This document shows, piece after piece, positions 1 through 21,648 of a stretch of DNA of 64,000 nucleotides. This DNA is from Gammaproteobacteria bacterium. Lineage in GTDB: Bacteria; Pseudomonadota; Gammaproteobacteria; Eutrophobiales; Eutrophobiaceae. Below the pieces are notes generated by a model, which made no database searches, was not told the DNA's origin, and saw only the letters and a list, made by a program, of their open reading frames with translations. How positions within the stretch are numbered: the first letter of the stretch is position 1; every line of letters starts with the position of its first letter. Where the stretch lies: positions 2,376,796 to 2,440,795 of the forward strand of contig OZ242192.1 in the NCBI GenBank assembly GCA_965205955.1, written 5' to 3'. Both the position numbers and the translations under genes were made by a program.

Positions 1-302
1 GATACCGTGCCAGCAAAGTATGACCGTTATAATGAAAATCACCTATGACAGGCACCTCGCATCCCTTTGCCGCCAGCCGCTCGCAAATAGGCGCAACCTG
101 TCTCGCCGCCTCATCGGTATTAACAGTGACGCGAACCAACTCCGAACCCGCCGCAGCAAGCTGCCGGATCTGCGTGACGGTTGAATTCAAATCAGCCGTA
201 TCGGTATTGGTCATTGACTGCACAACAACAGGATGACCGCCGCCCATGGCCACTGAGCCTACCTTGACAGAAACACTATCGCGTCTCTTTGACAGCGCAC
301 AC
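1..302 (-). CDS. ispG: 4-hydroxy-3-methylbut-2-enyl diphosphate synthase IspG, N-terminal part (gene continues beyond the window start)
   Basis: Minus-strand translation reads ...[94 protein letters not shown]. This is colinear with the E. coli IspG N-terminus ([29 protein letters not shown]...). The in-frame start is probably GTG at 302; an internal ATG lies at 247. Confidence 0.8.
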
Positions 303-594
303 ATTGAAGACATTGAGTAAGGAACCCGACTATTGAATATAGCCGGCAGTCTCAATGACCGCAGCCTGACTGTCAAGAAAACAGAGAAAAAACCAGGGAG
401 TGTAGTACGTAAACATATTCAGTAGTATAATCGGATCCCTGATAAACAAAAGATCTAAGGAGTCTCTCACATGCAAATACCAACGCACATTTGTTGCACC
501 GCTTGCGGCATCCTTGCTGCTGGCCGGATACCGATTTCCTGTTTATCCCTCCATCGGTCTGGCGATGGCGGGCAAAAATCGAGAGGAAACAGCG

Positions 595-1023
595 ATGGAA
601 ACAACCGTTCATAGCACGGCGATGAGCCGGAAACATTCCGCCCTCGTCGCCGTTGCAGGCGTAGCTCTCGCCCTTCTACTTGCCTTCATTCTGACACTTT
701 TACCGAAAGAGAAAGCCATTCTTGCGCTCGCGGTTTTTGTCGGTATGTTCAGCGGCGTTTATTTCGGCGTGGCGCTGTCGCCGACCGGCATCAAAAATAC
801 AGTGATGAACATCGCCATGGCGCTGATTTTTTTGGCGCTTGCATTTCTAGGGGCATGGCTTAGTCCGATGTTTTTCGCACTGGCGTGCTTTATGCATGCA
901 GCGTGGGATTTTGTCATCGGGCATCCCAAGGCACTCAACGAGCCGATTGCCCCGTGGTACATGCCGATATGCGTCGGCGCAGATATTGTCCTCGGCGTAT
1001 TCATCATCTTCTGGTTTTTCTGA
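595..1023 (+). CDS. small integral membrane protein of unknown function, about 4 TM helices
   Basis: ORF 514..1023 is strongly hydrophobic (LVAVAGVALALLLAFILTLLP, AMALIFLALAFLGAWL). The ATG at 595 is preceded by GAGAGGAAA, a Shine-Dalgarno-like sequence, at -7. Confidence 0.5.
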   Translation: METTVHSTAMSRKHSALVAVAGVALALLLAFILTLLPKEKAILALAVFVGMFSGVYFGVALSPTGIKNTVMNIAMALIFLALAFLGAWLSPMFFALACFMHAAWDFVIGHPKALNEPIAPWYMPICVGADIVLGVFIIFWFF

Positions 1024-1226
1024 ACGGCGCATCGCGGCGGCGATAGACAGCTTCATTCCAAATAACAATTTTTCCAGGATTGAGCCGTGACCCGGCGCAA
1101 GACACGGTCACATTACTCCGCAGACCGGAAACGATGAACCCCATTTCGACCGGGATACAGGAAAGGGATCCATTCCCGCCCAAAAAAAGCATATAAACAG
1201 TCCTGACCTTAAGTTTTAGGCAGAAT

Positions 1227-1284
1227 TGTGACTCCGATCACGCATAAAGGCATATGAATTATCCGATTTGTGAACCAAGTCACA
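1227..1284. promoter_or_regulatory. two tandem CRP/FNR-family-like palindromic operator sites
   Basis: Site 1 is 1227-1242, TGTGActccgaTCACg. Site 2 is 1269-1284, TGTGAaccaagTCACA, a perfect CRP half-site consensus. Their centres are 42 bp apart, about four helical turns. Site 2 is centred about 42 bp upstream of a predicted start site after a TAAAAT -10-like hexamer (1306-1311), which is class II geometry. Confidence 0.35.
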
Positions 1285-1635
1285 ACTTATTCTAAATATA
1301 TCGTCTAAAATTACTTACAGTATCCATATAAACATATATAGGTGCCTGCAAGATGTATTTTTGAGTATGAGTGCTTGGGATCGTATCTACCACTTCCCTC
1401 CTTCCTCCGGTAACAACGGTTTCAAGCACTTTTTTTTCAGCGGTTCAATACCCACCATTCAAAAAAGCTCCCGGATAATTAAAGAAAGAATCTGCACAGC
1501 CTGATCGAACCCTGCGCAGATCCGACAAGCCCCGAACAAACTCACTACCGAGTTTCCGGATCCTCTGCCATTTTGTCAATCCCGGCACGGTAAACGGAAT
1601 GGAAAGGGGGGGCACAGCACATTTTCTCGGACGCA

Positions 1636-1666
1636 AATAAAAAAGGGCGGCACCGCAGCACCGCCC
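1636..1666 (-). terminator. rho-independent terminator of the tracrRNA
   Basis: Minus strand GGGCGGUGC-UGCG-GUGCCGCCC forms a 9-bp stem (two G-U wobbles) followed by UUUUUUAUUU. On the plus strand the sequence is aaataaaaaagggcggcaccgcagcaccgccc. Confidence 0.6.
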
Positions 1667-1768
1667 TTGCACCTTTATTAAAGGGTTTGGCGCGAATCTC
1701 GAAGATTCCTTGTTAACGGACTAACGAGACCGCATTTCCTTGTGTGTGTTTGACATTCTATCAAGCAC
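1636..1768 (-). ncRNA. tracrRNA (trans-activating crRNA) of the adjacent type II CRISPR-Cas system
   Basis: The minus strand at 1749..1726 reads ACACACAAGGAAAUGCGGUCUC. This is perfectly complementary (22-23 nt) to nt 9-31 of the crRNA-sense CRISPR repeat GUUGCGGUGAGACCGCAUUUCCUUGUGUGUUACAAU. It is followed by GUUAGUCCGUUAAC, which resembles the S. pyogenes nexus UAGUCCGUUAUC. Two small hairpins follow (GAAUCUUCGAGAUUC and CCUUUAAUAAAGG). The last element is a GC-rich terminator hairpin with a U-tract. A TTGACG-N16-TATAAT promoter lies just upstream on the same strand. Confidence 0.6.
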
Positions 1769-1779
1769 AATCTTATTAT
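1750..1779 (+). promoter_or_regulatory. candidate cas9 promoter, arranged face-to-face with the tracrRNA promoter
   Basis: Plus-strand TTGACA (1750-1755), 18 nt, then TATTAT (1774-1779). This -10 occupies the same AT-rich hexamer region as the minus-strand TATAAT of the tracrRNA promoter. The cas9 ATG is at 1819. Confidence 0.3.
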
Positions 1780-1802
1780 ACGAATTCATTCTCTATCGTC
1801 AA
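1775..1802 (-). promoter_or_regulatory. sigma70-like promoter for the tracrRNA
   Basis: The minus strand has TTGACG (1802..1797), 16 nt, then TATAAT (1780..1775). The predicted start site is about 1768, roughly 18 nt upstream of the anti-repeat. Confidence 0.45.
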
Positions 1803-1818
1803 CTGTTATCTACAAAAG

Positions 1819-4800
1819 ATGGGAAAATTTACAACTCGGCTAGGTTTAGATCTCGGCACGGATTCCATCGGCTGGATGCTTTATCGGCTTGCCGATGGCG
1901 GCGAAATTGCGTCCGTCATCGGCGGCGGTGTGCGCGTTTTCTCGGAGGGACGCAACCATAAAAGTTTAGCTTCGCTAAACGCGGACCGTCGCAAAGCGCG
2001 GAGCATACGGCGCAATTTTTTCCGCAAATCGCAACGGCGCAACCGGTTGTTGCAATCGCTGGCAGAATTCGGATTGTTTCCCGCGAAAACAGAAAACGGC
2101 GAAATCATCCCCGATTACATCACTGGAAAAGCATTGGAAAAATTAGACCCGTGGCGATTGCGTGCGGAAGGAGCGGCAAGAGCATTGCCGCCGTATCATG
2201 TCGGTCGGGCGTTATTTCACTTGAATCAGCGGCGCGGTTTCAAAAGCAACGCCAAAACTGACGACGAGAGCGACAGCAAAGTCATCGGCAAAGCGCGCGA
2301 AAAATTGCGCGAGGCGCGAGGCGAATTGACGGTAGGTCAATATCTTCACTCGCGTCGCCAAAACACCGACAGCCCCAGTCATGAACGCACTGTCCGCGCT
2401 CGCCCCCTCAAAGTAACCGCAAAAGGAGTGGGAGAATATGAGCCGCTGTATCCATTTCGGGACGACATCGCAGAAGAGTTTGACAGAATCTGGGACACGC
2501 AAAAAACCGCGAATCCCGATTTTGGAAAAACCGCAAGCGGCGAATGCGGACGCGAAATAATCCGCGCGATTATCGTCGACCAGCGCGACTTAAAACCGCC
2601 GATTGTCGGCAAATGCCCCTTTTATCCCGACTTGAATCGAGCGCCGATGGCGTTGCCGTCATTTCAACGATTCCGAATTTTCAACGATTTGAATCATCTG
2701 GAATACAGCGATGAAAACGGACTCCATCAACTGATCATCGATGAGCGCGAGAAGATTCTTGATTGGCTTTTGAGCAAGAATCGGATGTCCTTTGACGACA
2801 TGCGCGAGAAAATCCTTAAAAACGAAGGGGCGAAATTCAATTACGAAAAAACCATCCGGCTGAAGCGCAATAAGAATAAACCCGAAATAAGAGAGGGAGA
2901 GGAGAAAGCGCGCCGCAAAAGCATCAACGGCGACATCACCGGCTATAAACTCCGCAACGCTCTCGGCAAGCATTGGGGCGCGCTAAAATGCGAAAGCGGA
3001 CTTTTAGCAAGTCAGGATAAATTCGTCCAGATTCTTCTGGACGAAAGTGAGGAAACTGCGCGTAAAATTCTCACCGACTGGGGATTAAGCGAGGACGAAA
3101 TTACTGCGGCATTCAAGGTGACTGCAGGATTGCCGAAAGGTCGTGCGCGTTTTTCCGGCAAAGCGATTCGGGCGTTTATTCCATATCTGGAAAAAGGAGA
3201 TTTGCTCGGCGATGCAATTGACAATGCGCAAGCCGACGGAAAAATCGGCAAACGGCACACAGACGACGGCGGCAAAATTTACGACAAACTGCCGCGCTAT
3301 CAAGAGGTCGGGCGATTGCGTCATCTTTGCCTGCCGCGAGTCCCCGAAGACGAAGACAAACCGGAAAATCAACGCATTCCCAATCCGACCGTGCATGTCG
3401 GATTAAATCAAGTGCGCGCGGTGGTGAACGACATCATTCGCATTTATGAAATTGACAACAAATCGCTGCAGATTGCGCTGGAAATTGGCCGCGATTTGCC
3501 TGTCGGCGCGAAAGGTCGCAAGGAGCGCGAAAGAGAAAACTCGGACAACCGCGACAATAGCGAGCGCATCGCTGCGCGGCTGAAAGAATTCTCAAAATTC
3601 CGCAACATGGAGACATCTGACATAATCAAGCGCCACATGCACTACATTAAGAAATGGAAACTATGGGAGGAATTATCTAAAAATTGCCTTGACCGCAAAT
3701 GCGTATTTTGCGGAAAAGTTCAAATAACCGCCAAAGATCTCGTGTCGGCGGACAGCGGAATCGAAATTGAGCACATTCTTCCGTTTAAGGAAACGCTTGA
3801 CAACGGTTACATGAATTTAACTCTGGCCTGTCAGGCATGCAATCAGGCAAAGAGAAAGAATGACCCCTATGCGGCGTTTGGCCACGATGAATCCCGCTGG
3901 CTTGGAATTCGCAAACGCGCGAGCAAATTGCCGCATGCCAAATTCGGGCGTTTTGACAAAGGCGCGTTGGAAAAGCGCAAATTTGACAAGGATTCTTTTT
4001 TGCCGCGTCAACTGCCAGAAACGCAGTATATCAGCCGTGCGGCATTGCATTATCTGCAGGCGATTTGTCCGGATGTTTATGTCATGCCGGGACGACTGAC
4101 TGGATTACTGCGAAGCAAATGGGGACTTAACAGCATCCTCGCGGATTTTCGGGGCGACGACAAAGATAAAAACATCAGCACTAAAAACCGCGAAGATCAT
4201 CGCCATCATGCGATTGACGCGGCGGTCGTCGGCGCAACGACGCGAAGCGTTTTGCAAAAAGTGGCGACGGCGGCAAATACCGGAATGGACAGTGAGCACT
4301 TGTTTTCCGATAAGGTGCCATGGCCTACCGCCGGAGAGGAAAATTTTCGGCGGATGGTGAAATCGGCAATTGGCAAAATTGTCATTTCGCACAAGCCGCG
4401 CCGTCACAAACAGGGCAAACTGCACGACGAAACGGCCTATCGCGTTGGTAAACAAGATGGCCCTTGGACTGTTGTATCCCATCACATCCCCATTTCCAAA
4501 TTGACCGCGCAAGCTCTCTACGAGGAAACGTCAGAAAACGAATTCGCGAACACATGGGGAAAAGCCGCAAAACTCCGAGACCACAAAAATTTGCGGCGGC
4601 GCCTGATTGATTGGAAAACAGAATTCGGCGGCGATTTCAAAAAAGCTCTTGAAAAAGCGCGCGAATGCGGAATCCGCCGAGTTGAGGTAATGGAGCGAAA
4701 ACGAGCAGATTCGCTAATCCCAATTCGCCATAAAGGAAAAGGCGGCGACGGCGGAGTCAAGCATTACTTACCCGGCAGCAATTGGGCGTACGAAATTCGC

Positions 4801-5199
4801 CTTTGCCACAACGGACTATGGGAAGGCAAAGCCATCACCACCTTTGAAGCAAACGCTCGCAAAGCAGCCGATGAGACATCAGAGCCGCTCCCGCTTGTCA
4901 TGCGTCTACACCGCGGTGACATGGTGATTTTGCAAAACCCTAATGACAATGACTTGAAGAAATTGAGCAAGAAACACGGCTCAATAATCGGATATGTCAC
5001 TCAAATCAGTGACGGTTATGTCGCAATTGCAGAACATACTGATGCGGTTCCGGATAGTCGGAGTCGAAAAAATGACAACAGCCAGAGCCGCTTCATCTTT
5101 CTCACTTCGGGAGATGTTTTTCGAACACGAAAAGTGCGGAAGATAGATGTCAGCCCGGCGGGATTAATTCGGAAAAACCCCATTCCCACAAACCAATGA
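1819..5199 (+). CDS. cas9: Cas9 endonuclease, about 1127 aa, RuvC and HNH motifs intact
   Basis: RuvC-I: MGKFTTRLGLDLGTDSIGWML. Arg-rich bridge helix: RRKARSIRRNFFRKSQRRNRLL. RuvC-II: LQIALEIGRDL. HNH: IEIEHILPFKETLDNGYMNLTLACQACNQAKRKND, with CVFCG and CQAC zinc-ribbon cysteines. RuvC-III: HRHHAIDAAVVGATT. The gene overlaps the cas1 start (ATGA). Confidence 0.92.
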   Translation: MGKFTTRLGLDLGTDSIGWMLYRLADGGEIASVIGGGVRVFSEGRNHKSLASLNADRRKARSIRRNFFRKSQRRNRLLQSLAEFGLFPAKTENGEIIPDYITGKALEKLDPWRLRAEGAARALPPYHVGRALFHLNQRRGFKSNAKTDDESDSKVIGKAREKLREARGELTVGQYLHSRRQNTDSPSHERTVRARPLKVTAKGVGEYEPLYPFRDDIAEEFDRIWDTQKTANPDFGKTASGECGREIIRAIIVDQRDLKPPIVGKCPFYPDLNRAPMALPSFQRFRIFNDLNHLEYSDENGLHQLIIDEREKILDWLLSKNRMSFDDMREKILKNEGAKFNYEKTIRLKRNKNKPEIREGEEKARRKSINGDITGYKLRNALGKHWGALKCESGLLASQDKFVQILLDESEETARKILTDWGLSEDEITAAFKVTAGLPKGRARFSGKAIRAFIPYLEKGDLLGDAIDNAQADGKIGKRHTDDGGKIYDKLPRYQEVGRLRHLCLPRVPEDEDKPENQRIPNPTVHVGLNQVRAVVNDIIRIYEIDNKSLQIALEIGRDLPVGAKGRKERERENSDNRDNSERIAARLKEFSKFRNMETSDIIKRHMHYIKKWKLWEELSKNCLDRKCVFCGKVQITAKDLVSADSGIEIEHILPFKETLDNGYMNLTLACQACNQAKRKNDPYAAFGHDESRWLGIRKRASKLPHAKFGRFDKGALEKRKFDKDSFLPRQLPETQYISRAALHYLQAICPDVYVMPGRLTGLLRSKWGLNSILADFRGDDKDKNISTKNREDHRHHAIDAAVVGATTRSVLQKVATAANTGMDSEHLFSDKVPWPTAGEENFRRMVKSAIGKIVISHKPRRHKQGKLHDETAYRVGKQDGPWTVVSHHIPISKLTAQALYEETSENEFANTWGKAAKLRDHKNLRRRLIDWKTEFGGDFKKALEKARECGIRRVEVMERKRADSLIPIRHKGKGGDGGVKHYLPGSNWAYEIRLCHNGLWEGKAITTFEANARKAADETSEPLPLVMRLHRGDMVILQNPNDNDLKKLSKKHGSIIGYVTQISDGYVAIAEHTDAVPDSRSRKNDNSQSRFIFLTSGDVFRTRKVRKIDVSPAGLIRKNPIPTNQ

Positions 5200-6119
5200 C
5201 CGGGCGCATTGTTGAAATTGCCGAGGGCGGACGGCATCTCTCGCTGCATCGCGGATTTATGGAAGTGCGCCACAACGATGAATTGCTCGCGCGAATTCCG
5301 CTTGATGATTTGCTTGCCGTTATCGTCAGCGGACACGGCTGCACGCATTCTTCCAATCTTATCGCCGCTTTCGCCGAGCGCGGAACGCCTTTTATTATCT
5401 GCGCCGCAAACTATCAGCCGATTGCATGGACGATTCCGCTGTTCGGCCATCATGCGCAAAGCGCGCGAATGCAGGCGCAGGCCAGAGCTAAACTTCCTCT
5501 CAAAAAACGGCTGTGGCAGCAAGTTGTCCGCACCAAAATCAGCAATCAGGCCGCAGTGTTGGAGGTATTCGGTAGTGGCGGCAACCGATTGAAAAGGCTT
5601 TCAACTAATGTGCGCTCCGGAGACCCGTCTAATGTGGAAGCGCAAGCTGCAAGATATTATTGGAGTGCACTGTTCCCTGACAGATTCTCGCGCAATAAAA
5701 ACGGCGGAGGCATTAATTCTCTCTTGAATTACGGCTACGCGATAATTCGCTCGTGCGTCGCAAGAGGCGTGACGGCGGCGGGATTACATCCGACGATTGG
5801 CATTCATCATCGTGGGCCGACCAATCCAATGTGTCTTGTGGACGATCTGATGGAACCGTTTCGTCCGCTTGCCGATTGCGTTGTTCGGAATCTCATCGAC
5901 AAAGGAATCCATGAAATCAGCCCCGATGTTAAAAGGATTCTCGCTTCGCTCGCCGTGATGGACATGCCCGGTCCGTCCGGCGTAACAACTTTGTTTACCG
6001 CCGCCGCACGGTTTGCCACTTCACTCGCGCAAATTCTAATGGGCGAAAATTCATCTTTGGAAACGCCGCAAATGCCGACACCGCTTACGCTGTTGTCAGT
6101 TGCCGACGGCAATGACTGA
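5196..6119 (+). CDS. cas1: Cas1 integrase
   Basis: 307 aa with typical Cas1 motifs: EAQAARYYW, SLLNYGYAIIRSCVARGV, HPTIGIHHRG and CLVDDLMEPFRP. The start ATG overlaps the cas9 stop. Confidence 0.9.
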   Translation: MTGRIVEIAEGGRHLSLHRGFMEVRHNDELLARIPLDDLLAVIVSGHGCTHSSNLIAAFAERGTPFIICAANYQPIAWTIPLFGHHAQSARMQAQARAKLPLKKRLWQQVVRTKISNQAAVLEVFGSGGNRLKRLSTNVRSGDPSNVEAQAARYYWSALFPDRFSRNKNGGGINSLLNYGYAIIRSCVARGVTAAGLHPTIGIHHRGPTNPMCLVDDLMEPFRPLADCVVRNLIDKGIHEISPDVKRILASLAVMDMPGPSGVTTLFTAAARFATSLAQILMGENSSLETPQMPTPLTLLSVADGND

Positions 6120-6228
6120 AGGCTAAGCAGCTATCGTATAATGCGGCATCGTTTGCGCCCCCCCGCATGATGACTGAAATATTGAGTAGCTATCGGATAA
6201 TGTGGATGTTTGTGATGTTTGAGACCTG
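6113..6228. repeat. diverged 58-bp tandem duplication of the cas1-stop/cas2-start junction
   Basis: Unit 1 (6113-6170) is atgactgaaggctaagcAGCTATCGtATAATGcgg.... Unit 2 (6171-6228) is atgactgaaatattgagtAGCTATCGgATAATGtgg.... Unit 1 retains only a 4-codon relic, ATGACTGAAGGCTAA, overlapping the cas1 stop. Unit 2 supplies the cas2 start, MMTEILSSYR. Confidence 0.6.
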
Positions 6229-6504
6229 CCGGTGGGAACGAAAAAAGAACGCACTCAGGCAACCAGTTTTCGCAATCATCTGCTCGGTCTTGGGTTTGAA
6301 ATGGTGCAGTTTTCTGTTTATTCGCGTTTCTGCTCAGGTAAGGAGCGCGTGGAAACCTTGGCGCAACAAGTCGCCGCGAATCTGCCGGTGGGCGGTAAAG
6401 TGGACATCCTTTCATTTACCGACAAGCAGTACGAAAACATTATCAGCTTTGAAGGGCGCACACCGCAAACGCGTGAAAAACCGCATCAACTCACGCTGCT
6501 ATGA
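6167..6504 (+). pseudogene. cas2: cas2 with a frameshift (net +2/-1 nt near 6221-6226), or a sequencing error in an otherwise intact cas2
   Basis: Frame A from ATG 6167/6170 gives MMTEILSSYRIMWMFVMFE.... Frame B from 6223 gives DLPVGTKKERTQATSFRNHLLGLGFEMVQFSVYSRFCSGKERVETL...GKVDILSFTDKQYENIISFEG. Together they are colinear with S. pyogenes Cas2 ([47 protein letters not shown]...[22 protein letters not shown]). Deleting GA from tttGAGAcctg restores ATG TTT GAC CTG CCG, which is M F D L P. In frame B a TGA at 6220-6222 sits just upstream of the first Cas2-like codon. Confidence 0.6.
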
Positions 6505-6577
6505 ATCGAATCGCCGCGTTTTTTGGAAGGGAATCGCCCTCGTTTTTCCCGCAAATTCAATGGGATAGACAAGGACG

Positions 6578-7802
6578 ATTGTAACACACAAGGAAATGCG
6601 GTCTCACCGCAACGGAATCCCGGAATTAGCAAAGCACTATTTTATTGTAACACACAAGGAAATGCGGTCTCACCGCAACTTTGCTCCAGATACCTGTATA
6701 TAACTGGTTAATTGTAACACACAAGGAAATGCGGTCTCACCGCAACTGACTCTCTTGAGGACCGCCGACGCGCCGAATTGTAACACACAAGGAAATGCGG
6801 TCTCACCGCAACGCTTTGGCGATACTGGCAAGAGCGTGATAGATTGTAACACACAAGGAAATGCGGTCTCACCGCAACCTAAAATGCAACTGATAGGGAT
6901 GCTGTGTCATTGTAACACACAAGGAAATGCGGTCTCACCGCAACTTGAAATGTCACAACCCCCGCAAGTATTATATTGTAACACACAAGGAAATGCGGTC
7001 TCACCGCAACGCCGGTGTTGCGTTCGAGCGCCTGCATTTGATTGTAACACACAAGGAAATGCGGTCTCACCGCAACGATATTTCGATGCTGAAGGTGCCT
7101 CGGCTGATTGTAACACACAAGGAAATGCGGTCTCACCGCAACTGATTTGCAAAATGAGGTAGATCGTTGTATATTGTAACACACAAGGAAATGCGGTCTC
7201 ACCGCAACACTCACTCTCTTCAATCTTGCTCTGTAGTCATTGTAACACACAAGGAAATGCGGTCTCACCGCAACAGCAACAATCGTGCCAGAAAACCTAA
7301 AAGTATTGTAACACACAAGGAAATGCGGTCTCACCGCAACGGCGCATTATTGAAAGCCCGCACGTGTAACATTGTAACACACAAGGAAATGCGGTCTCAC
7401 CGCAACTGAAGAAACCTACTACCAAAAAATACGTCAATTGTAACACACAAGGAAATGCGGTCTCACCGCAACGAAAAGAGATTTGCCCCAAAGCGGACTA
7501 TCATTGTAACACACAAGGAAATGCGGTCTCACCGCAACTAATAGGTGTTATGCGCCATGCCTGTGGGTATTGTAACACACAAGGAAATGCGGTCTCACCG
7601 CAACCACAAACAACGGCTTATGTCAAGTTTTGCTATTGTAACACACAAGGAAATGCGGTCTCACCGCAACAGTCATTGAGTCTCAGGCAGTAGCTATCCT
7701 ATTGTAACACACAAGGAAATGCGGTCTCACCGCAACAGTCATCAAGGCCGGGCTGGCCACCCTTTGATTATAACCCACAAGGAAATGCCACTTCACCGCA
7801 AC
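6578..7802 (-). CRISPR. CRISPR array of 19 repeats (36 bp) and 18 spacers (30-31 bp); the terminal repeat (7767-7802) is degenerate; transcribed on the minus strand from promoters embedded in each repeat
   Basis: The plus-strand repeat ATTGTAACACACAAGGAAATGCGGTCTCACCGCAAC starts at 6578, 6644, 6711, 6777, 6843, 6909, 6975, 7041, 7107, 7173, 7239, 7305, 7371, 7437, 7503, 7569, 7635 and 7701. A degenerate copy, attataacccacaaggaaatgccacttcaccgcaac, is at 7767. The reverse complement GTTGCGGTGAGACCGCATTTCCTTGTGTGTTACAAT ends in an extended -10 (TGnTACAAT). The N. meningitidis II-C repeat does the same (GTTGTAGCTCCCTTTCTCATTTCGCAGTGCTACAAT). Confidence 0.95.
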
Positions 7803-7896
7803 CGGTGCAATGTTAGCCCTTGAGTGATAATCAGCTTTGCACCGAACCCGACTGCGGCTATAATAGGCCGTTAATTCTCTGTGGCCTGGACCGATA

Positions 7897-9357
7897 ATGC
7901 GTATAACTGAAGAAGCATTGACCTTTGATGATGTATTGCTCGTACCGGATTATACCGAGATCCTGCCGCGTGATGTGTCTTTGCGGACTCGGCTGACGCG
8001 ACGGATAGAGTTGAATATCCCGCTGATCTCCGCGGCAATGGATACCGTTACCGAATCGGGAGTCGCGATAGCGCTGGCTCAGGAGGGAGGGATTGGGATC
8101 ATTCATAAGAATATGAGCCCGGAGATGCAGGCGGAAAATGTTCGGCGAGTCAAAAAATATGCAAGCAGTGTGATCAAGGATCCGCTCACGGTTGGGCCCT
8201 ATACCAGTATCCAGGAAGTTATCGATTTAACCCGGGAAAACAATATCTCCGGTGTGCCGGTTGTGGATGGCGAAGAGCTGGTTGGCATTGTTACCAGCCG
8301 TGATTTCAGGTTTGAAAAGAAGACAAGCGATCCGGTCAAAAATATTATGACGCACAAGAAAGACCTGGTGACAGTGCGGGAAAATGCCACCAAGGATAAA
8401 GTGCAGGATTTGCTGCACCGGCATCGGATTGAAAAAATACTTGTAGTCGATGACGAGTTTCGGCTGGCCGGGCTGATTACGGTCAAGGATATGCAAAAGG
8501 CGTCCCAATATCCAAATGCCTGTCTGGATGAAGCGAGGCGTCTCCGTGTCGGTGCGGCGGTGGGTGTAGGCAAGGCATCCATGGAGCGCGTCGAACAATT
8601 GGTTGACGCGGACGTTGATGTGATTGCGGTGGATACGGCACACGGGCACTCGAAGGGGGTGCTGGACATGGTCAAATGGATCAAGGCGCAATTTGAAGAT
8701 ATTCAGGTAATCGGCGGGAATATTGCCACCGGAGAGGCGGCGCTTGCATTGGCGGATGCGGGAGCGGATGCGGTCAAGGTGGGTATAGGTCCGGGGTCAA
8801 TTTGCACTACCCGTGCCATCAGCGGTGTCGGCATACCGCAAATATCCGCGATAGCGAATGTTGCCAAGGCCCTCAGGGAAAAGGCGATCCCGATAATTTC
8901 GGATGGAGGAATACGCTATTCCGGTGATATTGCCAAGGCCCAGGCTGCCGGCGCCTATAGTACGATGATCGGCGGTTTGTTTGCCGGATGCGAGGAGGCG
9001 CCGGGCGAGATCGAGCTTTATCAGGGCCGCTCCTACAAGTCTTACCGCGGCATGGGGTCTGTTGGGGCAATGTCACAGCAGCATAATTCATCGGATCGTT
9101 ATTTTCAGGAAAATGATGAGATTGAAAAACTGGTTCCGGAAGGGGTGGAAGGCCGGGTGCCTTATAAAGGGCCGCTGGCGGCAATAGTGCATCAATTGCT
9201 CGGCGGTGTCAGGGCGGCGATGGGCTATACGGGTTGTTTGACCCTGAAAGAGATGCGGGAAAAGGTGCGTTTCGTTCGTCTGACCGGGGCGGGCTTCAGA
9301 GAAAGCCATATCCATGACGTTACGGTTACCAAAGAACCACCGAATTACAGAATTTAA
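7897..9357 (+). CDS. guaB: IMP dehydrogenase
   Basis: 486 aa, colinear with E. coli GuaB: [23 protein letters not shown], two CBS domains and the C-terminal KEPPNYRI. Confidence 0.95.
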
Positions 9358-9441
9358 ATCGAGCATCCTCGTCCAACCGGCTGCGGCGCCAATACTATTG
9401 AGTAAGCTCGATCCCTCCCAATACGACAGTGTGAGGTATAA

Positions 9442-11016
9442 ATGATGGACAATATACATTCGGAACGTGTATTGATCCTCAATTTCGGGTCACAGTACAC
9501 GCAATTGATTGCACGACGGGTGAGAGAGGCTGGAATTTATAGTGAGATCCGTTCCTGTGACAGCGATGAACAGGCGATCAGGGATTTCAGGCCCAACGCC
9601 ATCATCCTTTCCGGGGGGCCGGAGTCGGCAACAAAGCCGAATGGCCGGCGGGCGCCTGATGCCGTCTTCGATATGGGCTTGCCGGTGCTGGGTATTTGCT
9701 ACGGCATGCAAATCATGGCGCAACAATTGGGGGGGAAAGTCAAATCCTCATTGCGTGAATTCGGTCATGCGCAAGTGCGGGCGCGTGGTCATTCAGAGTT
9801 GTTACAAGGCATTCAGGATGAAACCAATGCCGAGGGGCATGGCATATTGAATGTCTGGATGAGTCACGGCGACCGGGTAGAGGAATTGCCGCAGGGATTC
9901 AAGGTAATTGCTTCCACCACCAATGCGCCTATTGCCGGCATTGCCAATGAATCAAAGCGCCTGTACGGACTGCAATTTCATCCCGAGGTCACACACACCA
10001 GGCAGGGCGCGGCGATACTGCGGCGTTTTTTAGGTAAGATATCCGGCTGTCATGCGCTTTGGACAACGGAAAATATTATTGAGGACACGATAACAAGAGT
10101 AAAGCGGCAGGTGGGGAAGGAAAAGGTTCTGCTGGCCGTGTCGGGGGGCGTGGATTCTTCAATCGTGGCCGCCCTGCTGCACCAGGCCATTGGTGATCAG
10201 CTGGTGTGTGTATTTGTCGATAATGGACTGTTGCGTCTGAATGAAAGCGAGCAGGTACGGAACACCTTCGTTGAATGTATGGGTATAGACATCATCAGAA
10301 TCGATGCGCGGCAGCGTTTTCTCGAACAATTGCGGGGGGTGGAAGACCCGGAGCAAAAACGCAGGATTGTCGGAGGCGAGTTCATCAAGGTGTTTGAAGA
10401 GCATGCGAGGGATTTTGAAGGGATCAAGTGGCTGGCACAGGGCACTATCTATCCGGATGTTATCGAGTCCGGCAGTTCCGGCGCCGAGCCAGCGCATGTG
10501 ATTAAATCGCATCACAATGTCGGAGGACTGCCGGAAACTATGAGCATGAAACTGATTGAGCCCCTGCGCGAATTGTTCAAGGATGAGGTGAGAAAACTGG
10601 GTGTCCAACTCGGATTGCCTGAATCCTTGGTGTACAGGCATCCTTTCCCGGGGCCGGGTCTAAGCGTTCGCATTCTGGGCGAGATCAAGCAAGAATATAT
10701 CGACTTGTTGAGATCAGCGGATAACATTTTTATCGAGGAATTGAAAACAAACAATTTATACGATGAGGTGAGCCAGGCCTTTGCCGTTCTCCTGCCGGTG
10801 CGCTCGGTAGGCATCATGGGCGATCGCCGCAAATATGGCTACGTGGTTTCACTGCGCGCAGTGGTTACCGTTGATTTCATGACTGCGCACTGGGCACATT
10901 TACCCCATGATTTTCTGGAAAAGGTTTCCAACCGCATTATCAATGAAGTGGACGGCATCTCGCGGGTAACCTATGATATTTCCGGCAAGCCGCCGGCGAC
11001 CATTGAGTGGGAATAG
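9442..11016 (+). CDS. guaA: GMP synthase (glutamine-hydrolysing)
   Basis: 524 aa: [32 protein letters not shown], and the C-terminal PPATIEWE. Confidence 0.95.
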
Positions 11017-11143
11017 GGGTTATGATCCGGGCCGATTTATAAAATTTCCGTATACAGAAAAAATATACTGTTCAAATCATCCAAATAGTTCTAGAATAAG
11101 CAACTTTAAAATTGAAATTTAACCAACCAGGGGAATTTTAGAC

Positions 11144-11329
11144 ATGCCTACTCTAAAAGAATTGAAGAAGCAACAAGTAGAACTTGAAAAGAAAATTGCA
11201 ATAGCTCGTAAGGATGAACGAACCGAAGCGCTCAAAAAGGTTAAGGAGCTTTGCAAGGAATTTGGATTTACAGCCGGGATGCTCAAAGGGACACTGGCTG
11301 CTGGACGTAAATCCAAATATAAATCCTGA
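11144..11329 (+). CDS. small coiled-coil protein resembling the N-terminal dimerisation domain of H-NS/MvaT-family nucleoid proteins, with a Lys-rich tail and no canonical DNA-binding domain
   Basis: 61 aa: MPTLKELKKQQVELEKKIAIARKDERTEALKKVKELCKEFGFTAGMLKGTLAAGRKSKYKS. The heptad pattern resembles the MvaT/H-NS N-terminus. An AT-rich promoter region lies upstream. Confidence 0.3.
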   Translation: MPTLKELKKQQVELEKKIAIARKDERTEALKKVKELCKEFGFTAGMLKGTLAAGRKSKYKS

Positions 11330-11491
11330 TCCGCTCATCCGGAGCAAAGCGTCTATAGTTAAAACTGAGCTGCATTCAGTAGTATTTACGATCCTCTATA
11401 AAAAGGAAGCTGGATGCAGTACGCAGGAAAAAGTGCGGTTACTGCCCCGATAAATGGCAATGCTGTCAATGAATGTGCCACATTAAAAAGT

Positions 11492-11851
11492 ATGGATATT
11501 ATTTACCTGAAAGATCTGCGCATTGACACAATCATCGGCATCCATGATTGGGAGCGACGGGTACAGCAGACTGTTAGTATCGATCTGGAAATGGCGGCAG
11601 ATAACAGGAAAGCCGCAACCAATGACTGCATCGATGACACCTTGAATTATAAGGAAGTGGCAAAATGCCTTATTGCTTTTGTCGGGGCCAGTCAATTTCA
11701 ATTGGTTGAAACGCTGGCGGAGCGAATTGCGGAAATGCTGGTGAATGAATTTAATGTGCCCTGGCTCAGGCTGAGACTGAACAAACGCGGCGCACTCACA
11801 GGTGTGCGCGATGTCGGTGTAATTATAGAACGAGGCGCGGAAAACAGATGA
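11492..11851 (+). CDS. folB: dihydroneopterin aldolase
   Basis: MDIIYLKDLRIDTIIGIHDWERRVQQTVSIDLEMA... is the FolB fold signature. The gene overlaps the folK start. Confidence 0.8.
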   Translation: MDIIYLKDLRIDTIIGIHDWERRVQQTVSIDLEMAADNRKAATNDCIDDTLNYKEVAKCLIAFVGASQFQLVETLAERIAEMLVNEFNVPWLRLRLNKRGALTGVRDVGVIIERGAENR

Positions 11852-12336
11852 CCCAAGTGTATGTGGGCATTGGCAGTAATATCGATCGCATTAATAATGT
11901 CAAAGGCGGGATCCTTGCGCTGAAGCAGCAGTTTGGCAAGGTCATTGTTTCCCCGGTTTATGAATGCAGGCCTTTTGGTTTTGAGGGCGATAATTTCTAC
12001 AATCTCGTCGTCGGTTTTGAGACGAATTCCGATGTTGAAAAACTGCATTCCGAACTGCGTCGTATTGAGTTTCAATTCGGGAGGAAAAGGAATGAACCGC
12101 GATTTTCTTCCAGAACCCTGGATATCGATCTATTGCTTTATGGTGATCTGGTCAGTAAAAAGAGGGGCATCCCGCGTCATGATATTATCAAATACGATTT
12201 TGTGTTGAAGCCTCTGGCAGATATTGCTCCCCATTGGCGGCACCCTAAAACAGGCGCGGTAATCACATCCATGTGGGCTATATTCGACAAATCAAAGTCC
12301 GCATTGACAACTGTTACGCTGAATTTGAATGATTGA
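11848..12336 (+). CDS. folK: 2-amino-4-hydroxy-6-hydroxymethyldihydropteridine pyrophosphokinase (HPPK)
   Basis: MTQVYVGIGSNIDRINNVKGGILALKQ...VSPVYECRPFGFEGDNFYNLVVGFETN...RTLDIDLLLYGD is typical of HPPK. Confidence 0.85.
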   Translation: MTQVYVGIGSNIDRINNVKGGILALKQQFGKVIVSPVYECRPFGFEGDNFYNLVVGFETNSDVEKLHSELRRIEFQFGRKRNEPRFSSRTLDIDLLLYGDLVSKKRGIPRHDIIKYDFVLKPLADIAPHWRHPKTGAVITSMWAIFDKSKSALTTVTLNLND

Positions 12337-12342
12337 CCTTCC

Positions 12343-12753
12343 ATGAAACAACTACTCTTCGCAACACTTATTATCGCGCTTGCAGGATGCGGCGGATTCA
12401 AAAAAAAGCAGCCGGCGGAACATTTGAAAAAGGCAATGACGAATTACGAGGTGGCCTTGCGCTGGTCCCTCTACAAGAAGGCGGTTTTCTACCATAAAAG
12501 AAGGGAAAGCGGCAAGCCCGCCGCCGCCGTCAATATCGATGCAATAAAAGAGCTCCGTATCACCGGTGTTGACACCCCGGATATAGTCATAAATGACGAT
12601 CAGACCGAGGCCATAGTCACGGTTGAAATCAGTTATTACCAGCAAGATTACGGAATAATCAAAAACATGAGGTTCCAGCAAATCTGGTGGTATGATCCGG
12701 AATCGGAGCATTGGTTTACTGAAAGCGATTTCCCGAATCTTGAATCGCAATAG
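12343..12753 (+). CDS. lipoprotein of unknown function
   Basis: The signal peptide has a lipobox: MKQLLFATLIIALAGCGG. Confidence 0.5.
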   Translation: MKQLLFATLIIALAGCGGFKKKQPAEHLKKAMTNYEVALRWSLYKKAVFYHKRRESGKPAAAVNIDAIKELRITGVDTPDIVINDDQTEAIVTVEISYYQQDYGIIKNMRFQQIWWYDPESEHWFTESDFPNLESQ

Positions 12754-12817
12754 TCCGGATTCCGCCGGATCAATCGCACCGTATATTCCAACGCCCGGAC
12801 GGGATGCGGTGCGCATC

Positions 12818-13543
12818 TCAGGAATATAAGGTTCTTCCTCCATCAATGGTCAGCACTTGTCCGGTCATGTAATCGGCCCCTTCGATCAGGAATAGCGCCG
12901 CATTTGAAATATCTTTGTTTGTCCCGGCCCTTTTGAGGCTGATTCTGCTCAGGATCGCTTGCATCTCGTCCTCGGATGTATTGGACGGCCAACTGATTGC
13001 CCCCGGCGAAATTGCATTCACCCGTATATCGGGGGCCAACTCCCTGGCCAGTGATTTGGTCAGCATGATGATGCCAGCCTGGGAAATACTGTACATTGAA
13101 TATCCTCGCAGAGGACGCTCGGCATGAATATCGGCAATATTGATGATTGTCTCCAGCCCTGTTTGCGGTTTAGCCAGTAGCTGGGAAAGAAAAAAAGGCG
13201 CTTTTACATTCACATTCATTATATCTTCCCATACAGGGCTCGATGCAGTGTGTACAGGAGTGGGAAGAAAAACAGATGCATTATTTATCAACACATCAAT
13301 CCTGCCCTTGAATTTCAGAGCGGCGTCACAAAGAGAGTGTAGCGAGTCATTGTCCGCCAGGTTCGCATGCACTGAAATGGCGGACTCCGGTCGCGTATCA
13401 TTCAGCCTTTTCTCAAGTGTGCCGGATTCAACCCGGGACGAATTGTAATGAATAACGACATCCATACCGGCCTCATGCAGGCAGCCTGCCACATATGCGC
13501 CGATCCTTTTCGCCGCCCCGGTAATCAATACGGTTTTTTGCAT
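12818..13543 (-). CDS. short-chain dehydrogenase/reductase, pteridine-reductase-like (FolM/PTR1 family)
   Basis: The N-terminus TGAAKRIG carries the TGxxxRxG motif. YxxxK is present (YSISQAG). The gene sits next to folBK. Confidence 0.65.
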   Translation of the reverse strand: MQKTVLITGAAKRIGAYVAGCLHEAGMDVVIHYNSSRVESGTLEKRLNDTRPESAISVHANLADNDSLHSLCDAALKFKGRIDVLINNASVFLPTPVHTASSPVWEDIMNVNVKAPFFLSQLLAKPQTGLETIINIADIHAERPLRGYSMYSISQAGIIMLTKSLARELAPDIRVNAISPGAISWPSNTSEDEMQAILSRISLKRAGTNKDISNAALFLIEGADYMTGQVLTIDGGRTLYS

Positions 13544-13598
13544 ACTTCAGCACTTATTTCCTTGATAAGATATTTCCACGGCATACCATGCGCGTATT

Positions 13599-14801
13599 AT
13601 GTGGCAATCGACAGAATTGAAAACACTCCAATCACTTCCGCTTCCCGATAATCATGGATTGCGGCACAGCCAGGCCGTACATGATTCCCTGTGCGAATAT
13701 ATAAACACCCAAAACGGCGTGATTCGTTTCGATCAATATACTGCATTTGTCCTGTACAAACCAGGCCTGGGATATTACAGCAGCGGCAATCAAAAGTTCG
13801 GCGCGGCGGGTGATTTTACGACGGCGCCGGAAATTTCACCGCTGTTCTCCCGCTGCATGGCCAATCAATGCCGGTCAATTCTGGAGCGCATCGATAATGG
13901 CGCAATTCTGGAACTCGGCGCCGGCTCAGGCATCATGGCCTGCGATATTTTGCAGCATCTGGAGCAGATGGGGACGCTGCCTGCAGAATATCTGATACTT
14001 GAACTAAGCGCCGAATTGCGCGACCGGCAGCAGACCTTGATAAAACAGCAGGCGGCGCATTTATTCGACCGGGTAAAATGGCTGGATGCGTTGCCGGAAG
14101 ACGCCTCTTTTTCCGGCATTATTATTGGCAATGAAGTGCTGGATGCAATGCCCGTGAGGCGCTTCATCATCGATGAAGAGGAATACCGGCAGTTAGGCGT
14201 GTGCGTTGCCGATGATCAACTCGCATGGAAGATCATGGACATGGACGAGGCCTTAACAGAAGAAACGGAAAAAATCCCGCAATTCCTGAGCGGGAATTTT
14301 TGCAACGATTATATTTCTGAAATTAATTTACAATTGCAGCCCTGGCTGGCTGCGTTATCCGCATGTCTATATCGGGGCGCAGTTTTGTTGACAGACTACG
14401 GTTATCCGCTGGCGGAATACTTTCACCCGCAGCGCTCCGGCGGCACATTGCTTTGCCATTACCGCCATCGCGTCCATGACGATCCCTTCCTGTATCCGGG
14501 CTTGCAGGATATCACCGCATCGGTGAATTTTACCGCATTGGCGGAAAAGGCCGTGCAATGCGGATTCGAAGTAAGCGGTTATACCTCGCAGACCTATTTT
14601 CTGGCGGGAAACGGATTGGAAAATGAGATGCGGCGTTATGCTCAGCCTGATGCCAGAACCCGGGCGGAAATTTCACGGCAGGCGCGTATCCTGACTTTGC
14701 CTGGTGAAATGGGGGAGCGCTTCAAGGCGATAGTATTGACTAAAGAATTTGATACTATATTGCAGGGATTTTCGATACGGGATCAGCGCATACTGTTATA
14801 A
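13599..14801 (+). CDS. class I SAM-dependent methyltransferase, MidA/NDUFAF7 (DUF185) family
   Basis: Motifs TAPEISPLFSRCMANQ, ELGAGSGIMACDIL and PVRRFII. Confidence 0.65.
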   Translation: MWQSTELKTLQSLPLPDNHGLRHSQAVHDSLCEYINTQNGVIRFDQYTAFVLYKPGLGYYSSGNQKFGAAGDFTTAPEISPLFSRCMANQCRSILERIDNGAILELGAGSGIMACDILQHLEQMGTLPAEYLILELSAELRDRQQTLIKQQAAHLFDRVKWLDALPEDASFSGIIIGNEVLDAMPVRRFIIDEEEYRQLGVCVADDQLAWKIMDMDEALTEETEKIPQFLSGNFCNDYISEINLQLQPWLAALSACLYRGAVLLTDYGYPLAEYFHPQRSGGTLLCHYRHRVHDDPFLYPGLQDITASVNFTALAEKAVQCGFEVSGYTSQTYFLAGNGLENEMRRYAQPDARTRAEISRQARILTLPGEMGERFKAIVLTKEFDTILQGFSIRDQRILL

Positions 14802-14943
14802 ACTCATTTACTTGCCGGATTTTCCCAAAAACCAGCCGCGAATAATACGCTGCGCGATAGCGGTTCGGTAATAACAGCAAGCCGTCACAGGCAAGAATGG
14901 CCGCCGCTGTTTTTCTTTTTCACGCTCATATAACGATAAAAAA

Positions 14944-15744
14944 TTGGATCTGATACATATCATCGTACTCTCGATCATTCAGGGTCTGACCGAATTTTTG
15001 CCGGTATCGAGTTCCGCCCATTTGATCTTGCTGTCGTGGATTGCGGGTTGGCAGGATCAAGGGCTGGCGCTCGATGTTGCGGCGCACTTCGCCAGCGCAT
15101 GCGCGGCACTGATCTATTTCAGAAAAGATGTAGCCCGGATACTGAATGCGGGTTTTATTTCCGTAGCGCAGCGGGAATGCAATACAGTCGACGCAAAATT
15201 ATTCTGGCACATCGTGATTGCCAGCATTCCCGTTCTGCTCGCCGGATGGCTTGCACGAGAGATCATTACAGCGCATTTGCGCGACCCGTTGATTATTGCC
15301 TCCGCCTCCATCGGTTTCGGCCTGCTGCTCTGGTTTGCCGATATAAAAGGTAGCAGGAGCCGTTCGATAGCTACGATTACGATGCGGGATGCGATCATTA
15401 TCGGTCTCGCCCAGGCCGTGGCGCTACTACCCGGCACTTCCCGCTCAGGCTTTACCATAACGGTCGCATTGATGCTGGGGCTGGACAGAATTTCGGCGGC
15501 GCGCTTTTCCTTCCTATTGGCGATCCCTGTCATTCTCGTTGCGGCAACATATGAATTTTTCATACTGATTCAATCCGGGAACACCGTCGATATGATGGAT
15601 TTCCTTATCACAGCCGGGTTATCGTTCATCACTGCAATACTTACCATCCATTATTTTCTAAGGTTTATCGAACAGATAGGGATGCTGCCGTTTGTGATCT
15701 ATCGGGTGATCCTGGGTGGGGCGCTTTTCATAGTATTCCTATGA
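14944..15744 (+). CDS. uppP: undecaprenyl-diphosphate phosphatase (UppP/BacA); TTG start
   Basis: LTEFLPVSSSAHLIL, PGTSRSGFTIT, 266 aa polytopic membrane protein. Confidence 0.9.
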   Translation: MDLIHIIVLSIIQGLTEFLPVSSSAHLILLSWIAGWQDQGLALDVAAHFASACAALIYFRKDVARILNAGFISVAQRECNTVDAKLFWHIVIASIPVLLAGWLAREIITAHLRDPLIIASASIGFGLLLWFADIKGSRSRSIATITMRDAIIIGLAQAVALLPGTSRSGFTITVALMLGLDRISAARFSFLLAIPVILVAATYEFFILIQSGNTVDMMDFLITAGLSFITAILTIHYFLRFIEQIGMLPFVIYRVILGGALFIVFL

Positions 15745-15765
15745 AAAAATTGCCGACGAACAGGA

Positions 15766-16317
15766 TTAAAACGAGGAGTCCGTACCTTGCAGAAATTCGA
15801 TTTCCTCCCTGGTGGACATTCTGCCCAGTATTCCATTACGGTGCGGATAGCGGCTAAACTGTTCGATGATTGCCTTATGTTTCAATTCAAATTCCAGACT
15901 GGATCCCAAACCGGGCTCACGGTACAACTCAACGGCAATTTCGTGCATAGCCAATGATTCACTGTGCATGTACGGCATATATAAAAAGGTCTTCTGATTA
16001 TTATCCAGATTTTCCTGGGTCCTATTTGCCACCGCCTGCTGGGACAGGCACAGTGCGAGCGGATCATGGATAAAAGCATTTCTATGCCCCCGGTACAGAT
16101 TGCGTGAAAACTGATCGATAACGATAATTTCCGCAAGACACCCGCCCGGATCCTCCCGCCAGCGGTAAAGCTCGCAACGGATCGCCTGTTGATGAATCTC
16201 AAAAAAGCGCCGCCTAATCGCTTCGTCCAGCTCATCTGATTTTGTCCACCAACATTCCCGATCCAGTTCCGCAAACCAAAAATCCAGGATCTGCCGGTAA
16301 TTGGCAACCTCGGCCAT
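15766..16317 (-). CDS. DUF924 family protein
   Basis: 183 aa, beginning MAEVANYRQILDFWFAELDRECWWTKSDELDEAIRRRF. Confidence 0.6.
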   Translation of the reverse strand: MAEVANYRQILDFWFAELDRECWWTKSDELDEAIRRRFFEIHQQAIRCELYRWREDPGGCLAEIIVIDQFSRNLYRGHRNAFIHDPLALCLSQQAVANRTQENLDNNQKTFLYMPYMHSESLAMHEIAVELYREPGLGSSLEFELKHKAIIEQFSRYPHRNGILGRMSTREEIEFLQGTDSSF

Positions 16318-20922: not shown

Positions 20923-21013
20923 GGAGCACAGGCATTCCTGCCTGTGTTTTTTTTCGCGGGCAGGAATGCCCACGCTCCTGTGTTTTTTTCGCGGGCAGGA
21001 ATGCCCACGCTCC
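20923..21013 (+). terminator. long imperfect hairpin plus T-run, then a second direct copy of the 35-bp right arm
   Basis: GGAGCACAGGCATTCCTGCC (20923-20942) pairs with GGCAGGAATGCCCACGCTCC (20959-20978) and is followed by tgtgttttttt. The unit tgtgtttttttcgcgggcaggaatgcccacgctcc is present twice (20943-20978 and 20979-21013). Confidence 0.45.
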
Positions 21014-21035: not shown

Positions 21036-21648
21036 CGGCATATAATGGGATATATATGGTTATATTGGCATATAAATTGTTATAAATTACTATAAACTTT
21101 GAGACAGACATCATGGAAAACCCGTCAAGGCGGTCAGCGCACGGCATATAATGGGCTATATATAGTTATATTGGCATATAAATTGTTATAAATTACTATA
21201 AACTTTGAGACAGACATCATGGAAAACCCGTCAAGGCAGTCAGCGCACGGCATATAATGGGCTATATATGGTTATATTGGCATATAAATTGTTATAAATT
21301 ACTATAAACTTTGAGACAGACGTCATGGAAAACCCGTCAAGGCGGTCAGTGCGCGGCATATAATGGGATATATATGGTTATATTGGCATATAAATTGTTA
21401 TAAATTACTATAAACCTTGAGACAGACATCATAGAAAACCCGTCAAGGCGGTCAGTACGCGGCATATAATGGGATATATATGGTTATATTGGCATATAAA
21501 TTGTTATAAATTACTATAAACTTTGAGACAGACATCATGGAAAACCCGTCAAGGCGGTCAGCGCACGGCATATAATGGGCTATATATGGTTATATTCATG
21601 TATAAATTACTATAAGTACACAAGATGGAAGTCATGGAAAACCCCTTT
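21036..21648. repeat. tandem repeat of five complete 106-bp units plus a partial sixth, carrying the promoter, RBS and first codons of the downstream ATPase gene
   Basis: Units start at 21036, 21142, 21248, 21354, 21460 and 21566. Each unit contains cggcaTATAATggg, TTGGCA-N17-TACTAT and gacatcATGGAAAACCCGtcaagg...taa. That last element is a 12-codon mini-ORF, MENPSRRSAHGI*. The sixth unit has a roughly 10-bp deletion and runs into the real gene start, atggaagtcATGGAAAACCCC. In the fifth unit the mini-ORF ATG is mutated to ATA. Confidence 0.9.

Follow-up and report, generated by a model that had tools for sequence, protein, structure and literature searches.

The 64-kb stretch of gammaproteobacterial DNA analysed here, referred to as the window, carries a CRISPR-Cas9 locus whose genes and RNA elements identify it as a standard type II-C system (Table 1). 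A tracrRNA candidate and a DUF6010 gene lie upstream of the locus, and an IMPDH gene lies downstream. The cas9, cas1 and cas2 genes are contiguous, with cas2 occupying positions 6170-6504, and the array starts at 6578, which leaves no space for a fourth gene. The gene set is thus restricted to cas9-cas1-cas2, as in type II-C loci, and includes neither csn2, found in type II-A, nor cas4, found in type II-B. The Cas9 effector features both RuvC and HNH domains, and an anti-repeat tracrRNA is represented by the candidate described below.

Table 1. Coordinates of the features identified at the CRISPR-Cas locus of the window.
Feature	Position	Strand	Description
tracrRNA candidate	1636..1802	-	divergent from cas9; predicted ends
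cas9	1819..5199	+	1126 aa from ATG 1819; ORF open from 1744; intact
cas1	5196..6119	+	307 aa, intact; start overlaps cas9 stop
Decayed duplicate of cas2 5' end	6112..6169	+	ATGACTGAAG-GCTAAGCAGCTATCGTATAATGCGG; overlaps cas1 stop
cas2 codons 1-17 (MTEILSSYRIMWMFVMF)	6170..6220	+	frame A; N-terminus and beta-strand 1; from translation
Extra GA (GA to GAGA tandem duplication)	6221..6222	+	+2 frame shift; equivalent placement 6223-6224
cas2 codons 18-110 (DLPVGTKKER...HQLTLL*)	6223..6504	+	frame B; from translation and profile matches
CRISPR array	6578..7802	-	18 identical 36-nt repeats, 18 spacers of 30-31 nt
Alleles at the insertion site			without extra GA, TTTGACCTG; GAGA allele, TTTGAGACCTG

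The cas9 product matches the Cas9 profile TIGR01865 over its full length (E 8e-152, 507.8 bits), and the Pfam domains RuvC_III, HNH_4 and Cas9_a are all recognized. Translation likely starts at ATG 1819, as the 1151-aa ORF that opens at GTG 1744 is too long, its 5' extension being overlapped by the anti-repeat of the tracrRNA candidate. The cas1 product matches TIGR03639, the type II Cas1 profile (E 4e-68), as well as PF01867. Neither gene contains indels relative to L001, a genome of the same species. Codon differences between the two genomes are 44 synonymous and 32 non-synonymous in cas9, and 12 synonymous and 4 non-synonymous in cas1.

The 3' part of cas9 varies within the species. The window and L001 are colinear in this region. 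In contrast, window positions 4447-5120 and positions 4260-4990 of L085, another strain of the species, are separated by many indels, and identity is ~84% or lower, as against 97% over the first 4.2 kb. The L085 cas9 product is called as one 1120-aa protein. The divergent segment presumably corresponds to the PAM-interacting region, and the pattern suggests that the C-terminus of Cas9 was replaced by recombination within one species.

The tracrRNA candidate includes a promoter consisting of TTGACG at 1802, a 16-nt spacer and TATAAT ending at 1775 (11 of 12 positions match). Its anti-repeat, at 1747-1726 on the minus strand, matches the repeat at 22 of 22 nucleotides, and the terminator is a hairpin at 1668-1643, the stem of which measures 11 bp and leads into a T-run. 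A search of the window against Rfam at gathering thresholds yielded no matches.

In crRNA sense, which corresponds to the minus strand, the CRISPR repeat reads GTTGCGGTGAGACCGCATTTCCTTGTGTGTTACAAT and ends 3' in TGTTACAAT. On the same strand, every repeat contains an extended -10-like box of the form TG-n-TACAAT, and transcription of crRNAs from promoters within the repeats is a feature that we predict for this array. A degenerate terminal repeat with 6 mismatches marks the end of the array distant from cas2 (7767-7802). The arrays of the window, L001 and L085 contain 18, at least 6, and 23 spacers, respectively, and these arrays share no spacer; none of those in the window recurs in L001 or L085. 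Since the flanks of these arrays are 97-99% identical, the absence of shared spacers points to fast and recent spacer turnover in the species. Together with the 18 perfect repeats, it also shows that adaptation was active until very recently, in agreement with the original prediction, which had described the array as looking maintained. No spacer matches a sequence elsewhere in the window, as might have been expected if self-targeting had caused damage to cas2.

Outside the locus, the window is densely coding and features long ORFs. A search for further frameshifts, which would hint at a poor assembly, found none across its 64 kb; the only damaged gene found is a truncated member of the RhuM family, which is altered by a rearrangement and not by an indel. 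This gene (33665-34231, minus strand) adjoins a type I restriction-modification methylase and matches only positions 5-108 of the 252 of its profile. The place of its 3' part is taken by two ORFs, 33289-33843 and 32958-33284, the translations of which resemble, by eye, a HEPN-type/nucleotidyltransferase pair. It looks as if the RhuM gene was truncated by a rearrangement next to an inserted nucleotidyltransferase/HEPN-like pair. The surrounding region is a defence island that includes hsdR with a DUF559 insert, hsdM, hsdS and a DUF4143 ATPase gene. Two sets of repeats lie close to each other. An AT-rich 106-nt unit is tandemly reiterated in intergenic DNA at 21036-21596 (5.3 copies, 95% identity), upstream of the ORF 21616-22800, and a 35-nt repeat is present in 2 copies at 20941-21013; iterons or a regulatory array are both possibilities. 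A coding tandem repeat is found at 40624-41650, within the minus-strand ORF 40563-42212, in which a 102-nt unit (34 aa) occurs ~9 times; units of this size are suggestive of a TPR-like repeat protein.

The interrupted reading frame of cas2

The first 17 codons of cas2 (MTEILSSYRIMWMFVMF) are read in frame A from ATG 6170, and the other 93 codons lie in the frame two bases ahead (frame B). When translated from ATG 6167/6170, frame A gives MMTEILSSYRIMWMFVMFE and continues into out-of-frame residues up to a stop at 6568. Frame B reads ...V*DLPVGTKKERTQATSFRNHLL...HQLTLL*, with a TGA at 6220-6222 and its own stop at 6502-6504. The two frames are separated by an extra GA, and global alignments to L001 and L085 fit an insertion at 6221-6222 and one at 6223-6224 equally well (ATGTTT[GA]GACCTG). 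A tblastn search with the repaired Cas2 sequence likewise returned a window match that divides into two frames at residue 18. The insertion creates the sequence TGAGACC, which has 7 nt in common with the core of the CRISPR repeat; we treat this likeness as due to chance.

The consequences for the protein are evident from comparisons with the curated Cas2 families, the cut-offs of which are 23.8 bits for PF09827 and 24.5 bits for TIGR01573. The frame-B body alone exceeds both thresholds but aligns only to positions 10-73 of PF09827 (E 3e-10, 40.5 bits) and 11-90 of TIGR01573 (50.5 bits). Upon deletion of GA, the resulting 110-aa protein covers both profiles in full (PF09827, positions 1-73, E 1e-14, 54.7 bits; TIGR01573, positions 1-90, E 6e-17, 61.7 bits). 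Its alignment with the solved chains 6qxf_K and 5xvn_E of type II-A Cas2, starting at their residue 2, is likewise free of gaps. We take profile positions 1-10, missing from a 90-aa product started at GTG 6232, to correspond to the first beta-strand of the ferredoxin fold together with the conserved Asp. These results bear out the original prediction, according to which cas2 is frameshifted within 6167-6504, the frame-B body has lost the first beta-strand, and removal of GA restores a protein colinear with Cas2. In a working member of the family, one uninterrupted ORF encodes the complete ferredoxin-like domain, with beta-strand 1 and its conserved Asp. The window gene does not, and is, to judge from its frames, a disrupted family member and not a working one.

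The original prediction had left the start codon at either ATG 6167 or ATG 6170. As L001 has ACG at the position of the first ATG, ATG 6170 is most likely the cas2 start. Frame B offers GTG 6232 as its earliest possible start, and translation from there would produce 90 aa. No second cas2 gene that might complement the lesion in trans was found within the 64-kb window.

The sequence LSSYRIM can be read twice in this region because the 5' end of cas2 is duplicated. The first ~36 bases of the gene, along with the overlap with the cas1 stop, occur in two copies ~58 nt apart. The upstream copy aligns both to the downstream copy and to the cas1-stop/cas2-start junction of two more distant orthologous loci, L002 and L004, and occupies the position at which cas2 starts in these loci. 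It is decayed, the loss of one base leading to a stop after 4 codons, and the downstream copy provides the working cas2 start. L002 and L003 have an intact cas2 ORF, the ATG of which is fused with the end of cas1 in an overlap with its stop (ATGGCTGA). The duplicate is present in all three strains carrying cas genes, i.e., the window, L001 (5898-5955) and L085 (same region), and is absent from L002 and L004. The duplication is consequently older than the GA insertion.

cas2 in conspecific strains and related loci

About 800 relatives were retrieved by a protein search with the repaired Cas2, and the nearest include full-length proteins of 110-112 aa. The same-species genomes compared are contigs of 2.63 Mb (L001), 1.72 Mb (L085) and 479 kb (L084), and the deposit containing the window is a contig of 2,565,083 bp. 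Within the species, L001 and L085 read ATGTTTGACCTG without the extra GA, and both have an intact 110-aa ORF; the L001 DNA, for instance, is ...ATGACTGAAATATTGAGTAGCTATCGGATAATGTGGATGTTTGTGATGTTTGACCTGCCG... and forms an unbroken 110-codon ORF. The protein encoded by codons 1-17 is identical in the window, L001 and L085. The more distant orthologues L002, L003 and L004 are also read in a single frame through the site and lack the two additional bases. When L002 and L004 are used as outgroups to polarise changes, the window cas2 shows neither a unique derived amino-acid change nor a second lesion. This fits either a consensus error or a mutation a few generations old.

At a broader scale, tblastn with the repaired protein revealed a one-frame Cas2 including the first beta-strand, (Y/F)RxMW...FDLP, at 80 of 82 related loci. 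The two broken genes are that of the window, at residue 18, and that of L047. In the latter (7170, contig_38002 of an uncultured alphaproteobacterium MAG), the frame changes at residue 80; the locus is unrelated and the site differs from that in the window. The 80 loci derive from a Cas1 scan of GTDB species representatives, in which no genome of the same species was found. The best Cas1 matches among these representatives are 81% (a Ca. Oxydemutatoraceae MAG) and 78% (a Nitrospirales MAG) identical, and the nearest Cas1 relatives reside on MAGs labelled Ca. Oxydemutatoraceae, Nitrospirales, Ca. Porifericomitaceae, Bdellovibrionales and Dehalococcoidia, a mix of lineages that we take to be typical of marine sponge microbiomes. 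Searches of JGI metagenome contigs, either with a pattern of the cas2 site accepting GA or GAGA or with a 23-nt sequence ending in the TTTGA of the site, gave no match. The comparison with orthologous loci that had been proposed as a check thus favours the frameshift, as L001 and L085 both read tttgacctg and nearly all related loci are in one frame.

Several database entries are annotated as short Cas2 proteins of 95-101 aa (P0003, P0004, P0007, P0247, P0022 and P0024), all of which start at or before MFDLPV; the 98-101-aa calls retain most of strand 1. Three 95-aa proteins, encoded on contigs of 2.56-2.63 Mb, raised the possibility of a conserved short form, or of a conserved frameshift, which was rejected when the DNA revealed intact ORFs. 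In the 4 short calls checked at the DNA level, the missing N-terminus is present in frame upstream, and these calls are, by their DNA, the outcome of the gene caller's choice of start codon, which in the three 95-aa proteins was the ATG of MFDLPV. The frameshift reading therefore survives the case named as its refutation, as no conserved short Cas2 with its own start was found. The 90-aa call P0246, which starts at GTG 6232, belongs to the window's own deposit; it comes from the same assembly and is not independent.

Indels between the same-species sequences are few. A global alignment of window 216-6577 to L001 (~6.36 kb, upstream of the array) gave 98.2% identity and two indels, namely a one-base difference in non-genic sequence near 1173 and the GA at 6221-6222. 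Downstream, window 7803-13233 is 99.2% identical to L001 over ~5.4 kb, and window 7766-17357 is 99.25% identical to L084, a further strain of the species, over ~9.6 kb, with zero indels in both alignments. Two single-base indels, neither in predicted genes, separate window 1-1605 from L084. Aside from GA, the indels relative to L001 and L084 hence number three, all single-base and all outside predicted genes, which indicates that the assemblies are clean for indels. The alignment to L085 adds three short indels located 5' of cas9 and the cluster in the divergent 3' part of this gene. Excepting the latter region, GA is the sole indel within the genes shared by the same-species sequences over the ~21 kb compared. 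The IMPDH protein of the window is identical to that of L084 and 100% (rounded) identical to that of L001; the next-best matches, labelled Proteobacteria or Gammaproteobacteria bacterium, are only 80-83% identical.

L084 lacks the locus. The segment corresponding to window 1606-7765, which comprises the tracrRNA candidate, cas9, cas1, cas2 and the 18 repeat-spacer units, is missing, a clean deletion of ~6.2 kb. Between the DUF6010 gene and the IMPDH gene, L084 (7848-7906) retains the degenerate terminal repeat and ~22 nt matching neither flank, which are plausibly a spacer remnant. Judging from these sequences, defence loci are in flux in the species.

Probable origin and predicted consequences of the GA insertion

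As sequenced, cas2 is a null allele generated by a strain-specific GA to GAGA tandem duplication after codon 17. No new mechanism is involved, the cause being either a commonplace 2-bp insertion that disables the gene or an error in the consensus. The two possibilities correspond to those of the original prediction, a cas2 pseudogene or an assembly indel, and this pairing is supported by the absence of GA from L001 and L085 and of a slippage site.

We consider it probable that the GA insertion is a real, very recent mutation that has led to the loss of cas2. From the data above, we infer that the insertion is present in the cells, and not just in the consensus, and that adaptation has been lost. 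In favour of a real mutation are the near-absence of indels from genes in these assemblies, the non-homopolymer context, the dense coding and long ORFs in the rest of the window, the flux of defence loci in the species and the strain-level decay of type II-C systems described in a symbiont (PMC5174739). Ribosomes initiating at ATG 6170 would synthesize the first beta-strand followed by 114 out-of-frame residues. The remaining 93 codons would have no start except GTG 6232, the product of which would be devoid of beta-strand 1 and of the conserved Asp at its end. The insertion would consequently abolish spacer integration by Cas1-Cas2, and no new spacers would be acquired. Interference by Cas9, guided by the tracrRNA and the crRNAs of the 18 spacers already present, would continue.

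That the organism has an intact 110-aa cas2, the GA having been introduced by consensus calling, by polishing or by the collapse of co-existing strains, is an explanation that we regard as possible, though well short of probable. Save for GA, cas2 is pristine, as comparison with L001, L085 and the outgroups reveals no non-synonymous change of its own, and the array looks freshly maintained and carries evidence of recent adaptation. The 90-aa annotation P0246 stems from the window's own deposit. Consecutive ENA analyses supplied the closest relatives, which are long contigs assembled from metagenomes, and the window probably has the same kind of origin; several strains of the species are represented in those analyses, making a mixed-strain consensus conceivable. 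However, GA is the sole indel within shared genes over ~21 kb, which implies a very low rate of indel errors in the assembly. Errors in long-read consensus sequences concentrate at homopolymers, and the GA to GAGA context is neither a homopolymer nor a long microsatellite. Defence genes, in addition, commonly suffer genuine frameshifts, and the sister strain L084 is without the whole locus.

Two further readings assume that cas2 is functional despite the split. An N-terminally truncated Cas2 of 90 aa, translated from GTG 6232, is very improbable. Gene callers annotated P0246 at this place and proteins of 95-101 aa in relatives, and the body alone scores above the Cas2 family thresholds. However, the short calls of relatives start at or before MFDLPV, thereby keeping the conserved Asp, and no relative has a short form without MFDLPV, on which ground the reading was rejected; (Y/F)RxMW...FDLP is in frame at 80/80 unbroken loci. 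The 90-aa form would also miss profile positions 1-10, no Shine-Dalgarno-like sequence lies upstream of 6232, and translational coupling is not available because ribosomes in frame A stop only at 6568.

Programmed recoding, in which ribosomes shifting by -1/+2 at TTTGAGAC, or slippage during transcription of this sequence, would yield low levels of full-length Cas2 and thereby tune adaptation, is extremely improbable and was rejected: beyond the two-frame arrangement in an otherwise functional-looking locus nothing speaks for it, the split occurs at the site in 0/2 conspecific strains and 0/80 other related loci, ATG TTT GAG ACC contains no X XXY YYZ heptamer (the original prediction had also noted that a canonical slippery heptamer is lacking), homopolymer or long A/T run, the shift would be limited to a single codon by the target-frame TGA at 6220-6222, and tRNA-Phe or tRNA-Glu would need to re-pair on non-cognate triplets. 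Genes known to undergo programmed ribosomal frameshifting, such as prfB, dnaX and those of IS3 transposases, feature a conserved site and a slippery sequence, neither of which is found in the window cas2.

Returning to a real mutation, we lean, with some reserve, towards the view that the GAGA allele would be the first step of CRISPR-Cas loss in an uncultivated, probably symbiotic gammaproteobacterium, adaptation being lost and interference persisting, with the intact loci of L001 and L085 and the deletion in L084 representing other stages. A toggling between GA and GAGA in the population, acting as an on/off switch for adaptation, is much less likely. If the lesion is real, the strain would still be able to use its 18 spacers but not to acquire new ones, and the window, the two intact strains and the deleted one form a small natural series of type II-C loss. 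For annotation purposes, the 90-aa "Cas2" of the window genome needs to be marked as the product of a frameshifted gene, and the checked 95-98-aa Cas2 calls in relatives reflect wrongly placed starts of a 110-aa protein. The findings have no bearing on open mechanistic questions about CRISPR adaptation.

Comparison with known Cas2 proteins and type II-C systems

As in other members of the Cas2 family, the window gene directly follows a type II cas1 gene and precedes the array, and its repaired product is colinear with the solved chains and is covered by both Cas2 profiles from position 1. It differs from them in being divided between two frames after codon 17 and in the presence of a decayed copy of its own 5' end.

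The locus resembles the type II-C system of Neisseria meningitidis in several respects. The order cas9, cas1, cas2, array is the same, and neither a csn2 nor a cas4 ORF intervenes before the array. The repeats are 36 nt long, start with GTTG, end with TGTTACAAT in crRNA sense and contain the extended -10-like box, and the tracrRNA candidate carries a 22-nt perfect anti-repeat. Neisseria type II-C crRNAs are reportedly transcribed from promoters inside the repeats, a finding attributed to Zhang et al. in 2013. In contrast to the Neisseria system, the tracrRNA candidate of the window precedes cas9 in divergent orientation, and cas2 is frameshifted.

Decay of type II-C systems at the strain level has been described in genomovars of the termite-gut symbiont 'Ca. 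Endomicrobium trichonymphae' (PMC5174739). In that case, one locus is intact, pseudogenised or missing among close genomes, and the species analysed here provides a parallel, as the locus is intact in L001 and L085, carries a frameshifted cas2 in the window and is deleted in L084. The type of damage differs. In 'Ca. Endomicrobium trichonymphae', cas9 is split and the array has been lost (PMC5174739), whereas in the window the damage is confined to cas2 and has spared the array. The window locus would thus, provided that the lesion is real, represent an earlier stage of decay than the 'Ca. Endomicrobium trichonymphae' case.
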